IMG/VR virus record: IMGVR_UViG_2531839234_000021
Strand: one strand, 5' to 3'
From: a virus
Taxonomy: Duplodnaviria; Heunggongvirae; Uroviricota; Caudoviricetes
DNA: 4,566 nt
Shown piece after piece: positions 364 through 4,566 of the stretch. The translations under genes were made by a program, and so were the position numbers. The notes under the pieces are model-generated. The model saw nothing but the letters and a program-made list of their open reading frames with translations, searched no databases and had not been told where the DNA came from. Positions within the stretch are counted from its first letter, which is position 1; the number at the start of each line of letters is the position of its first letter.

Positions 364-582
364 TTAACGCGGGTATGTAATCATTCTGGCAATGCTTAAT
401 GCCGCTGCTTTTTCCAGATTGGTGATATCCTGCTCCAGAGCGGACAGATTTTCAGCCTGCTTAGCCCTGGCTTCATTGGCCCATTTCAGGTCCTGCACCG
501 CCTTAATTTTCTGGTGCATCCACTCATAAAGTTCATCATCGGTATAGTCTGGCGCGATGATGACGGGGTCTCGTTTCTGCAT
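364..582 (-). CDS. Small hypothetical protein, 72 aa, in the ydfC position of a DicA-type early-left operon
   Basis: Complete ORF with ATG at 582-580 preceded by a strong Shine-Dalgarno AAGGAG (complement of 588-593) at 5-nt spacing. Same strand as the repressor and dicF. Length equals that recalled for K-12 YdfC, but the sequence itself is not recognised. Confidence 0.65.
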   Translation of the reverse strand: MQKRDPVIIAPDYTDDELYEWMHQKIKAVQDLKWANEARAKQAENLSALEQDITNLEKAAALSIARMITYPR

Positions 583-654
583 GTCGGCTCCTTGTGGTTA
601 GCGTTGCCTGCTTTTTAACCACGTCAGGCGAGGTGGTATCCTCTGAGGGGTCTG

Positions 655-954
655 TTACTCGAGAGGAAATTGGTTATGAATACAATCAAGTTTTCTTGCC
701 CAGAATGTGGTGGCTAAGTCTTTGACACATCCTTTAAGCCGCAGGGCTCTGACAGTTTCGCGGGAGCCATCTGCAAAAATTGTGGTCACCTTGTAACTGA
801 AGATGAGTCCTCGCAGTTCGATGACGAAATCGTTGACAATATCTTCGGTGCACTCACCAGAGACTTTCTGAAGTAAAGGCGCATACCGCTTAGTTACCGC
901 TCTGATAACTCTTACCTGTCCGGCAATGGCGCTGATATCAATATAAAGCGCCAT
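655..954 (-). CDS. Hypothetical 99-aa ORF; alternative interpretation of the same DNA as the plus-strand zinc-ribbon ORF, possibly a shadow ORF
   Basis: Open frame with ATG at 954-952 but no convincing Shine-Dalgarno. The start codon sits inside the 926-954 hairpin stem. It uses several rare Arg and Gly codons (CGA, AGA, CGG, GGA). It is in exact codon register with the opposite-strand zinc-ribbon frame. No recognisable motif. Confidence 0.25.
   Translation of the reverse strand: MALYIDISAIAGQVRVIRAVTKRYAPLLQKVSGECTEDIVNDFVIELRGLIFSYKVTTIFADGSRETVRALRLKGCVKDLATTFWARKLDCIHNQFPLE
676..876 (+). pseudogene. Small zinc-ribbon protein ORF (two CxxC knuckles) interrupted by an in-frame TAA at 715-717
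   Basis: Strong RBS GAGAGGAAA (661-669) 6 nt before ATG 676. The frame reads MNTIKFSCPECGG-stop-VFDTSFKPQGSDSFAGAICKNCGHLVTEDESSQFDDEIVDNIFGALTRDFLK-stop. CPECGG and CKNCGH form a classic zinc-ribbon pair. A hairpin plus T-rich tract follows at 926-963. Codon usage looks more E. coli-like than the antisense ORF. Confidence 0.4.
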
Positions 955-963
955 CGCTGTTTC
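926..963 (+). terminator. Candidate intrinsic terminator downstream of the zinc-ribbon ORF
   Basis: Perfect 8-bp inverted repeat ATGGCGCT (926-933) / AGCGCCAT (947-954) with a 13-nt loop, followed by a T-rich stretch (TGTTTCTTT). Confidence 0.3.
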
Positions 964-1089
964 TTTGCTGATCCCTGGACGCCTTCCATTCTGATGTTTG
1001 ACTCGCCCACTGAGAAATCCTCTGCTTCCCCTTAACGCCGGGTAGCGGAACTGTTTGCTGAGAACACCGTGCGGTGTCTTGATGAGTAG

Positions 1090-1119
1090 AATTTAGAATA
1101 GCCTAAGAGTTATGGTCAA
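1090..1119 (-). promoter_or_regulatory. Putative early-left (PL-like) promoter with overlapping operator sites
   Basis: On the minus strand: -35 TTGACC (complement of 1114-1119), 18-bp spacer, -10 TAAATT (complement of 1090-1095). A TTAG-N6-CTAA operator-like site lies at 1093-1106 and an imperfect copy (GTAG-N6-CTAA) at 1129-1142. Confidence 0.35.
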
Positions 1120-1218: not shown

Positions 1219-1626
1219 TTATTTATTTGCGCTTCTTTTGCGAGCTTTGAGTAGTTCTTCAAAAAGTTTGTTGAAATTCTCAACTCGAGCACGCATCTCT
1301 GACAACAGAGCCTTTTGCTCTGACTCAGGCAGTGCGTCGAACAGTTGAAGCAACTCTTTTTGATCTTCTGTCAGATTGACTGGCTGATTATCTGGGATCG
1401 GTTCGCCTGGTTGCTTATCTTCATCTCCAAAAAGAAGCCAAGTCGGCGAGCACTGAAGCGCCTGGCTCAGTGCGAATAATCTCTTCCCCGCTGGCTGTGT
1501 TTCATCTCTTTCCCATTGAGAAATTGTTACGTGAGCCACTTTGACCAGCTTACCTAATGCGGCCTGAGACAGTTTTAATTTTTTTCGCCTGTATAAGAGG
1601 CGAGCACCGAAGGTTTCGTTTTTCAT
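1219..1626 (-). CDS. dicA: Prophage repressor, XRE-family HTH with a C-terminal helical domain and no S24 peptidase domain (DicA-like, 135 aa)
   Basis: Complete ORF. N-terminal HTH signature (LSQAALGKLVKVAHVTISQWERDETQP). Divergent from a Cro-like gene across an operator-rich intergenic region. Length and architecture match E. coli DicA as I recall it. On the same strand as dicF. Confidence 0.85.
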   Translation of the reverse strand: MKNETFGARLLYRRKKLKLSQAALGKLVKVAHVTISQWERDETQPAGKRLFALSQALQCSPTWLLFGDEDKQPGEPIPDNQPVNLTEDQKELLQLFDALPESEQKALLSEMRARVENFNKLFEELLKARKRSANK

Positions 1627-1702: not shown

Positions 1703-1930
1703 ATGTTGAAAATTGATGCTATAGCGTTTTTTGGCAGCAAAACAAAGCTTGCCAATGTCGCAGGAGTTAGGCTGGCAAGCGTTGCTGCATGGGGGGAACT
1801 GGTTCCTGAAGGTCGCGCGATGCGCCTGCAAGAGGCATCCGGCGGGGAACTTCAGTACGACCCCAAAGTTTATGACGAATATCGTAAGGCAAAGCGGGCG
1901 GGGCGGTTGAACAATGAAAATCACCACTGA
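1703..1930 (+). CDS. cro: Cro-like repressor of the P22 Cro family (DicC-like), 75 aa
   Basis: Complete ORF with RBS AAGGG 7 nt upstream. Sequence (FFGSKTKLANVAGVRLASVAAWGELVPEGRAMRLQEASGGELQYD) resembles P22 Cro as recalled (HFGTQRAVAKALGISDAAVSQWKEVIPEKDAYRLEIVTAGALKYQ). Divergent from the repressor gene. Confidence 0.85.
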   Translation: MLKIDAIAFFGSKTKLANVAGVRLASVAAWGELVPEGRAMRLQEASGGELQYDPKVYDEYRKAKRAGRLNNENHH

Positions 1931-3965: not shown

Positions 3966-4566
3966 ATGGAAACCGTTTTTGACGCACTGAAAGCACTGAA
4001 AAAAGCCTCGTCGCACGAGATTGCAGCCCGTCTTGAAATCAGCCGTGACGATGCTGTTACCGAACTCTGGAAGCTGAAGCGTCGTGGCGAAGCTGATAAC
4101 AAGGGGTCGATGTGGTGGCTGACGAGTGAGGCAACTGAAGCGGCCCCAAAAACCACTGCAGAGATGCTGATTAACGCGATTGAACAGCATGGTCCTCAGT
4201 CGGCTGACGAACTGGCGTTAATGTTCGGGATTACCTCCCGCCGGGCGAATTCATCACTGGCGATGGCTGTCAGCAAAGGTCGTCTGATTCGCGTAAATCA
4301 GGACGGTAAATATCGTTACTGCATACCGGGCGATAATTTACCGGCAGAGCCGAAAGCTGCATCGGTAACGGAAACCGATGGTAAAGCCTTTCCTCAGCCG
4401 GCAGGTGTTGCGTTACCAGTCCGGGAAGCGGAAACACAGGAAGAAATTAAAACTGAAAGTGTGGCGGTCACAGTGCAGTCACAGTCGTCGTTCATCAGAA
4501 AGCATCCGGATGGTCTGATTTTACCATCGCTGCATGTGGCTAACCGCGAGCTGCGCCGGGCAAAAG
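3966..4566 (+). CDS. Hypothetical protein with two tandem winged-helix-like segments (possibly DUF1627-like); 3' end beyond the window
   Basis: Not in the supplied ORF track because it has no stop inside the window. Strong RBS GGGAGG (3952-3957) 8 nt before ATG 3966. My translation is an open frame to the window end: [55 protein letters not shown]... followed by a second similar segment [54 protein letters not shown]. Confidence 0.75.

Follow-up and report, generated by a model that had tools for sequence, protein, structure and literature searches.

NCBIfam NF047912 is a curated family of "ECs_2282 family putative zinc-binding protein" sequences, named after ECs_2282 of Escherichia coli O157:H7 Sakai (e.g., WP_001092153.1). 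The annotated members closest to the copy described here are 66 amino acids long, carry a CxxC...CxxCGH pattern, and are encoded beside ydfC in a prophage early region. Here we describe a copy of this zinc-ribbon gene in a 4,566-nucleotide stretch of viral DNA (IMG/VR record IMGVR_UViG_2531839234_000021; the whole stretch is referred to as the window), together with a 99-codon open reading frame (ORF) on the opposite strand that contains it. The read-through translation of the window copy is 98 to 100% identical to annotated members, from which it differs by a nonsense codon at position 14 that replaces the uninterrupted ORF of ~66 codons, making it a pseudogene of the family. We favor, with moderate confidence, the reading that the locus is a nested antisense gene pair that heads a repressor-controlled dicBF-type operon and whose zinc-ribbon partner is dead in this lineage.

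Long ORFs that are antisense to another coding sequence (CDS) and fully overlap it have been described for nog1, asa, ano, and pop of enterohemorrhagic E. coli (EHEC) and for olg1 and olg2 of Pseudomonas aeruginosa. The locus described here resembles them in this arrangement, in the same-register antisense frame that is typical of shadow ORFs, and in the use of purifying selection as an argument for function (PMC9927249, PMC5960689, PMC7103648, PMC8850804). It differs from them in that the embedded partner is the older gene and has a broad family, the pair is conserved across several phage genera, and the containing ORF has a nonoverlapping segment in which selection can be tested cleanly. The published antisense pairs rest on expression or phenotype evidence, whereas the present pair is proposed from sequence.

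The operon context is most similar to that of the dicBF operon of the K-12 prophage Qin (ydfA-ydfB-ydfC-dicF-dicB-ydfD), which is controlled by DicA/DicC (PMC5069750). The two share the repressor type, ydfC, DicF, dicB, and a repressor-controlled leftward promoter. However, the promoter-proximal slot is occupied by ydfA and ydfB in Qin and by the 99-codon ORF with its antisense zinc-ribbon gene in the window. Lar (restriction alleviation), YnfU, and Ogr/Delta are also small four-cysteine ribbon proteins of prophage early regions, but every sequence match to them was below threshold and supports no assignment of the zinc-ribbon protein to these groups.

Zinc-ribbon gene on the plus strand

The plus-strand ORF (positions 676 to 876, 66 codons) is a real small zinc-ribbon phage gene that is knocked out here by one stop codon. 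Its ATG (positions 676 to 678) is preceded by GAGAGGAAA, with AGGA at positions 664 to 667 and an 8-nt spacer; the Shine-Dalgarno (SD) region GAGAGGAA spans positions 661 to 668, and AGGA or AGGT is kept before the ATG in all lineages. Codons 8 to 13 encode CPECGG, and codon 14 is TAA (positions 715 to 717). It is followed by 52 sense codons, including those for CKNCGH and an acidic tail, up to the TAA at positions 874 to 876. No ATG, GTG, or TTG was found in frame downstream of the first TAA in the codon listing of the ORF. This layout and the missing in-frame start had been described in a first-pass annotation of the window, and both were confirmed.

The first-pass annotation had also proposed a profile search of the read-through translation, with the lack of a zinc-ribbon family match as grounds for rejecting the gene. 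With Glu at position 14, the NF047912 model gave the protein a score of 57.3 bits (cutoff, 37; E = 1e-15; model positions 1 to 56 of 60), and that ground for rejection thus fell away. Zinc binding is putative for the family as a whole. The four cysteines of the window frame (C8, C11, C33, and C36) are invariant in 30 family members, and in the alignment of these members (~30% identity) they form the only invariant columns, within a common core G-A-x-C-x-x-C-G-H-x-x-T-E-D-D. Since the curated-family cutoff is passed and the four cysteines are invariant, the zinc-ribbon motif far exceeds what chance would produce. When 1.84 billion representatives were searched with a profile, at least 77 clusters were retrieved at an E value of <=1e-3, nearly all with proteins of 60 to 75 amino acids that align over most of their length. 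A scan of genome contigs with the plus-strand alignment gave spurious matches only. In distant relatives (~30% identity), the zinc-ribbon gene lies in a same-strand operon or another context, without the minus gene, and the zinc-ribbon family is therefore older and broader than the minus gene.

None of the searches assigned a function. All Pfam zinc-ribbon models scored below their gathering thresholds for the plus protein, the Lar model TIGR03655 reached 15.7 bits (cutoff, 39.6) and YnfU 11.4 bits (cutoff, 36), and the Lar-like PHROG 6422 (E = 0.0098) was outscored by PHROGs of unknown function. PDB sequence profiles returned generic ribbon matches only. PADLOC gave a best E value of 0.0019 for the zinc ribbon and no match for the minus protein, and neither was assigned to a defense system. 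The first-pass annotation had seen a typical place for a moron, exclusion, or anti-repressor gene; no family match in the Pfam, PHROG, NCBIfam, PDB-profile, or PADLOC searches backs any of these roles.

Antisense 99-codon ORF and selection on the two frames

The zinc-ribbon family is already curated, and the more interesting point is that the ORF that seemed to compete with it is probably also a gene. This ORF (positions 655 to 954, minus strand) is intact in the window, holds the whole zinc-ribbon gene in antisense, and is annotated in RefSeq as a 99-amino-acid hypothetical protein (WP_001240336.1). It is the first gene of the leftward dicBF-type operon. Its product matches PHROG 21318 with all 99 residues on profile positions 1 to 99 of 99 (E = 4.6e-67). 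This search, too, had been suggested by the first-pass annotation, and it did produce a match; PHROG 21318, however, consists of the minus ORF itself, so the match is not independent evidence. In a profile search, the family reached down to 34% identity and included proteins of 94 to 126 amino acids from Enterobacter and metagenomes. These proteins share the motif M-T-L-x-[VIL]-[DN]-x-[ST]-[AVI]...Q...P-L-L, and their residues opposite the four Cys codons remain Ala or Thr, which is obligatory if the zinc-ribbon gene is retained. An AlphaFold2 model of the minus protein with a helix-helix-helix-beta-hairpin-helix arrangement had a predicted local distance difference test (pLDDT) score of 68, which is weak evidence given the shallow alignment.

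Both ORFs are conserved together across phages of E. coli, Citrobacter, Klebsiella, and Enterobacter. None of the 89 close sequences and none of the divergent lineages examined has an interrupted minus frame, and the plus ORF is intact in all of the divergent lineages. The latter comprise Citrobacter amalonaticus (L004), Klebsiella variicola (L005), Citrobacter freundii (L006 to L008), Klebsiella michiganensis (L104), and the metagenomic or viral contigs L100, L102, L103, and L105 to L109. In three genomic contexts, the minus ORF is always co-directional with the surrounding operon and the zinc-ribbon gene always antisense to it. The two-ORF module has an early-left position in the window, in L006 to L008, and in L094. 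In L004 and L005 (positions 4001 to 4285 in both), it lies directly downstream of a cro-like gene in the early-right operon, in a cII-like position. Because both early-left and early-right sites occur, the module is mobile between operons while retaining its orientation relative to the operon.

The main alternative, which we consider unlikely but take seriously, is that only the zinc-ribbon gene is real, that the minus ORF is a shadow ORF called when the plus frame is broken, and that positions 877 to 954 are a 3' untranslated region (UTR) with a terminator hairpin. The N-terminal 25 minus codons (positions 877 to 951), which lie outside the zinc-ribbon ORF, bear most directly on this explanation. 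The first 25 to 26 minus codons (positions 877 to 954) align without gaps at 50 to 75% nucleotide identity, whereas upstream of the initiator Met the identity falls to random level and stops appear in L005 and L104. A 3' UTR would not be expected to remain free of indels at 50 to 60% nucleotide identity or to lose its conservation exactly at the minus Met. The "TL" two codons after the ATG is conserved, and a clear SD sequence lies 3 to 6 nt before the ATG in four of the five lineages outside the E. coli clade (L004, GGAG; L005, GGAGAGG; L006, GGAGG/AGGA; L104, AGAGG), with a weaker one in L107 (AGGAAG). The co-directionality of the minus ORF with the operon across differing contexts also argues against a shadow ORF.

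Where it does not overlap the plus ORF, the minus frame is under purifying selection. In a permutation test, in which the observed substitutions were re-placed on the same bases and BLOSUM62 similarity was scored in six frames, the frame of the minus ORF (frame -0) gave z values of 2.8 to 5.0 (p <= 0.002) in 8 of 10 deep pairs, and the other five frames of the N-terminal segment gave no consistent signal. After removal of the hairpin, 16 codons were left and the minus-frame signal persisted (z = 3.2 to 4.4). A signal in one frame only, seen also outside the hairpin, is not predicted by UTR or hairpin constraint. The nonsynonymous/synonymous rate ratio (omega; Nei-Gojobori) of the minus frame in this segment was 0.09 to 0.47. 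In five independent sister pairs, minus-synonymous changes exceeded nonsynonymous ones per possible site for both transitions (0.197 versus 0.093; p = 0.0055) and transversions (0.107 versus 0.020; p = 8e-6), which also speaks against noncoding sequence.

Inside the overlap (198 nt), where the two frames are in an antisense register sharing codon position 2, the plus frame is under purifying selection and is the dominant one. Among close E. coli phages, the plus frame had 17 synonymous and 14 nonsynonymous changes, compared with 7 and 24 in the minus frame, and the segregating sites fell 8:3:20 on plus codon positions 1:2:3. Plus-synonymous transitions occurred at 15 of 63 possible sites, as opposed to 5 of 63 for the plus-nonsynonymous/minus-synonymous class, and the excess of plus-synonymous/minus-nonsynonymous over plus-nonsynonymous/minus-synonymous changes had a p value of ~0.02. 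Across divergent lineages, the plus-frame omega was 0.09 to 0.28. Codon-position counts at deep divergence were ambiguous (26:12:33), and class-rate and permutation tests were used instead.

Several observations weigh against a second gene and favor the shadow-ORF explanation. (i) A same-register antisense stop requires TTA, CTA, or TCA in the plus frame; these are rare plus codons, open antisense shadows are common, and an open minus frame is thus partly expected by chance. Even in distant GC-rich members of the family (L097 to L099), where the minus gene is clearly missing, the antisense frame is open. (ii) The minus frame shows no population-level constraint in the overlap, where plus-synonymous/minus-nonsynonymous transitions match the flank rate; its omega there ranges from 0.45 to 1.7, being ~1 or above in close pairs and 0.45 to 0.87 at depth, and tests conditional on the plus protein gave z values of only ~0 to 2.5. 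(iii) In the E. coli clade, the minus ATG (positions 952 to 954) lies within a hairpin arm and the upstream aaagaaacagcg is a poor SD sequence, as the first-pass annotation had stated correctly. Half of the minus-only segment overlaps this hairpin, whose covariation indicates RNA-level constraint in part of positions 877 to 954. (iv) The RefSeq annotation switches strands with the state of the plus ORF (see below). (v) Foldseek searches of BFVD and PDB with the minus model gave no significant match, and the zinc-ribbon model (pLDDT, 52; shallow alignment, zinc not modeled) was too poor for a structure search. No transcription, translation, or proteomic evidence for either ORF was found in the literature or in EHEC expression tables, and both the zinc-ribbon promoter and the alternating expression proposed below are read from the DNA only.

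Further results from the overlap point toward dual constraint, short of proof. In sister pairs, the rate of plus-synonymous/minus-nonsynonymous change was 0.6 to 0.8 of a neutral proxy, a difference that was not significant. In conditional simulations of several pairs, 30 to 84% of the simulated sequences gained an antisense stop that the real ones lack. A 27-nt core (positions 781 to 807, TGT GGT CAC CTT GTA ACT GAA GAT GAG) had a single synonymous substitution (in L006) against an overall divergence of ~25%, and it is more conserved than the zinc-ribbon protein alone requires.

The first-pass annotation had treated the two ORFs as competitors and had preferred the plus-strand gene, with the minus ORF as a spurious alternative. 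The frame-specific N-terminal conservation of the minus ORF, its never being interrupted, and the SD and ATG in four of five lineages speak against the second part of this view, as does its constant orientation with the operon. The choice between the three readings it offered was a false dichotomy, as both frames look genuine. The minus ORF is thus probably also a protein-coding gene, and this prophage spot probably encodes two proteins from two strands. The breadth of the zinc-ribbon family would fit a scenario in which an enterobacterial phage lineage gained the minus gene through overprinting of the older zinc-ribbon gene.

Some additional features of the minus ORF were noted. In the more distant L093/L094 lineage (44% identical), there is a 104-codon antisense ORF with a Met and an SD sequence; the L093 N terminus was aligned to the others by MAFFT only, and pairwise BLASTP of it found nothing. 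One metagenomic minus protein (P0120, in alignment A7) has Ser opposite zinc-ribbon Cys33, which rules out a Cys codon at that site of the opposite strand, and its minus ORF is intact; the zinc-ribbon partner has probably lost a ligand in that lineage. In some records, the minus ORF is extended upstream to 118, 137, or 146 amino acids. These versions were rejected, as no frame of positions 955 to 1011 had a coding signal and conservation ends at the Met. In the leader of the leftward operon, the window lacks one base at ~1003 and one at ~1040 relative to phages 640R1 and Evi. The former deletion frameshifts the GTG start of the 118-amino-acid version and leaves a 32-amino-acid out-of-frame ORF (positions 912 to 1010, minus strand). 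Because the extension has no coding signal, both deletions probably fall in the 5' UTR and not in a gene.

Nonsense allele at codon 14

Phages 640R1 and Evi have GAA (Glu) as codon 14 and an intact 66-codon ORF, in line with the suggestion of the first-pass annotation that this codon might be a sense codon in homologues. Among 89 related sequences, the plus ORF is intact in 68, carries the same TAA in 20, and has an independent nonsense codon at position 43 in 1. Complete E. coli genomes were searched with 55-mers centered on position 715, with every seed word forced to include the variant base. The TAA allele was found in 516 genomes, including O157:H7, O111:H8, and O103, and the GAA allele in 851. 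O157:H7 genomes often carry both alleles, in separate prophages. A single G-to-T change converts GAA to TAA in plus codon 14 and, at the same time, TTC (Phe80) to TTA (Leu) in the minus ORF; Phe80 is invariant in the minus-protein family (alignments A6 and A7). The first-pass annotation had considered a recently inactivated zinc-ribbon gene. A real gene that a point mutation has inactivated is borne out, but "recently" is doubtful, given that the TAA allele is spread over O157:H7, O111:H8, O103, and other backgrounds.

RefSeq labels the intact copy as an ECs_2282 family protein on the plus strand (WP_001092153.1) and, in the TAA copy, annotates the antisense ORF instead. The antisense ORF is occasionally annotated despite an intact plus ORF (NZ_CP173466.1, 4374274 to 4374573). 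As an example of the former, near-identical DNA in NZ_AP018488.1 has received opposite-strand calls from RefSeq and its Prokaryotic Genome Annotation Pipeline (PGAP) according to the state of codon 14 (2126507 to 2126707 versus 2027857 to 2027911). This strand-flipping annotation is systematic and concerns >1,300 genomes.

It is very improbable that the TAA arose through an error in sequencing or assembly, or that it is bypassed by read-through or reinitiation so that the zinc-ribbon protein is still made. The rest of the window plus ORF is undamaged and identical to intact alleles, as either explanation would have it. A sequencing error hiding an intact 66-amino-acid protein, as the first-pass annotation had envisaged, is nevertheless ruled out by the identical TAA in 516 independent complete genomes. 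Of the three stop codons, TAA terminates most efficiently in E. coli. For reinitiation, the plus frame downstream of the TAA offers no canonical start, and a product lacking the first CxxC knuckle would be unable to form a four-cysteine site. A published bulk screen does list a 35-codon embedded ORF with a noncanonical start downstream of the TAA: Table S12 of Zehentner et al. 2020 (bioRxiv 10.1101/2020.11.18.388249) contains an ORF at EDL933 1848616 to 1848723 (plus strand) that matches ECs_2282 residues 32 to 66. It falls within WP_001240336.1, in the same TAA-bearing copy. We rejected this entry as ribosome-profiling support because the table reports a BLASTp comparison run in bulk on all embedded ORFs.

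The converse proposal, that only the minus ORF is real and the zinc-ribbon frame is its chance by-product, could cite a minus ORF that is never broken while 21 of 89 sequences and 516 genomes carry a broken plus ORF, and the better AlphaFold2 score of the minus protein (68 versus 52), but it is effectively refuted by the breadth of the zinc-ribbon family, given a plus protein above the curated-family cutoff, four invariant cysteines, relatives at ~30% identity in unrelated contexts without the minus gene, and the strongest purifying selection in the overlap falling on the plus frame.

Operon context, regulatory elements, and proposed expression

Many E. coli O157:H7 genomes contain a lambdoid prophage that is 100% identical to the window; the identity to the "PPompW" phages is 99.7%. 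According to RefSeq, ydfC (positions 364 to 582, minus strand) is the second gene of the leftward operon, after the minus ORF. An Rfam match to the 5' portion of DicF (25 bits) occupies positions 1 to 22 on the minus strand, where it is cut by the left end of the window, and dicB comes next in the genome beyond this edge (RefSeq annotation). The genes on the minus strand thus make up an early-left operon of the dicBF type. Across the ydfC-dicB spacer, on the DicF strand, RefSeq annotates a 135-amino-acid hypothetical protein (WP_000394552.1; L001, 3375 to 3782). This CDS may be spurious, the counterpart spacer in K-12 being an untranslated region that carries dicF.

To the right of the pair lies a 135-amino-acid repressor (positions 1219 to 1626, minus strand; "helix-turn-helix domain-containing protein" in RefSeq and present in the ORF list), which resembles DicA. 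A Cro/CI-type regulator (positions 1703 to 1930, plus strand) and, downstream of it on the same strand, YdaT, DnaT-like, and P-like replication genes follow, all as annotated in RefSeq. A promoter scan identified a sigma-70-like leftward promoter, TTGACC-18-TAAATT (positions 1090 to 1119, minus strand), which would be a candidate driver of the minus ORF-ydfC-dicF-dicB operon. A pattern search found operator-like palindromes TTAG-N6-CTAA flanking this promoter (positions 1093 to 1106 and 1129 to 1142) and in the repressor/cro intergenic region (positions 1628 to 1641, 1653 to 1666, and 1679 to 1692), i.e., 5 matches in the window compared with 1.2 expected. These sites are probably the operators of the DicA-like repressor, whose binding is predicted from the motif.

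The segment between the two-ORF module and the repressor varies. In paralogous or related prophages, it contains RelE/RelB, ParE/PaaA2, or HigB/helix-turn-helix toxin-antitoxin pairs (L091, 4120 to 4591; L003, 3527 to 3718; L102, 1742 to 2220; and L103, 1557 to 2221). A mosaic junction is located ~170 nt to the right of the zinc-ribbon stop codon (window position ~1045).

A conserved 8-bp hairpin (positions 926 to 954) has the arms ATGGCGCT (positions 926 to 933) and AGCGCCAT (positions 947 to 954) and is followed by CGCTGTTTCTTTG. Its fold has an energy of -19.2 kcal/mol (z of about -2.9) on both strands. On plus-strand RNA, it stands 3' of the zinc-ribbon gene, and on minus-strand RNA, it holds the minus start codon. 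In 11 lineages, 81% of the alignment cells are paired, compared with 28 to 60% in slid controls; four pairs changed on both sides, and none of 500 shuffles reached the covariation score. A T-rich tract, TGTTTCTTTG (positions 958 to 968, plus strand), is a possible weak terminator tail. The hairpin and T-tract that the first-pass annotation had placed at positions 926 to 963 are thus present, but the consensus terminator scan did not call the hairpin because the loop is 13 nt long. A canonical intrinsic terminator was rejected on account of this loop and of T-runs that are interrupted and start 3 to 8 nt after the stem.

Upstream of the zinc-ribbon gene, TG-G-TATCCT (positions 634 to 642, plus strand; ~35 nt before the ATG) is a candidate extended -10 element. 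The E. coli clade, L006, L104, L105, L108, and L093 all retain the -10-like sequence GGTGGTATC(C/T)T; the consensus promoter scan did not call the element at positions 634 to 642, which has no good -35 element. An inverted repeat, GCCTG-N14-CAGGC (positions 606 to 629), is located between the stop codon of the minus ORF and the start of ydfC and overlaps the -35/spacer region of the putative promoter. It is kept in most lineages, with the form GCCGGG/CCCGGC in L093, and its fold is no more stable than those of shuffled sequences. The repeat might be bound by a protein or function as an RNA element.

Taken further, the nested pair could be a long-lived one, co-evolved across enterobacterial lambdoid phages, in which both ORFs are translated, the minus gene having arisen by overprinting, and in which convergent transcription and a shared bifunctional hairpin make expression exclusive to lysogeny for one partner and to lytic growth for the other. 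We put this extended proposal forward tentatively, as somewhat short of an even chance. For the nested pair as favored above, the most likely mechanism would be alternating expression from two convergent transcription units. In the lysogen, silencing of the leftward promoter by the repressor would leave the zinc-ribbon gene to be expressed from its own promoter. Upon derepression, leftward transcription would express the minus ORF, ydfC, dicF, and dicB, run antisense through the zinc-ribbon gene, and suppress it. The shared hairpin would form the 3' end of the plus transcript and, on the minus mRNA, a structure that sequesters the start codon.

If the pair were recognized, thousands of prophage annotations in E. 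coli would be brought into agreement. At present, PHROGs keeps the minus ORF as a separate family, and RefSeq calls intact copies of the plus gene ECs_2282 family members and TAA copies of the locus "hypothetical protein." Few convincing antisense overlapping pairs are on record for bacteria and phages, these are disputed, and this locus is an unusually clean comparative case: the embedded partner has a broad independent family, a nonoverlapping segment of the containing ORF gives a frame-specific signal, and 516 genomes provide natural knockouts of one partner. If true, a strand-alternating pair beside the immunity switch could belong to the lysogeny/lysis program of EHEC prophages.

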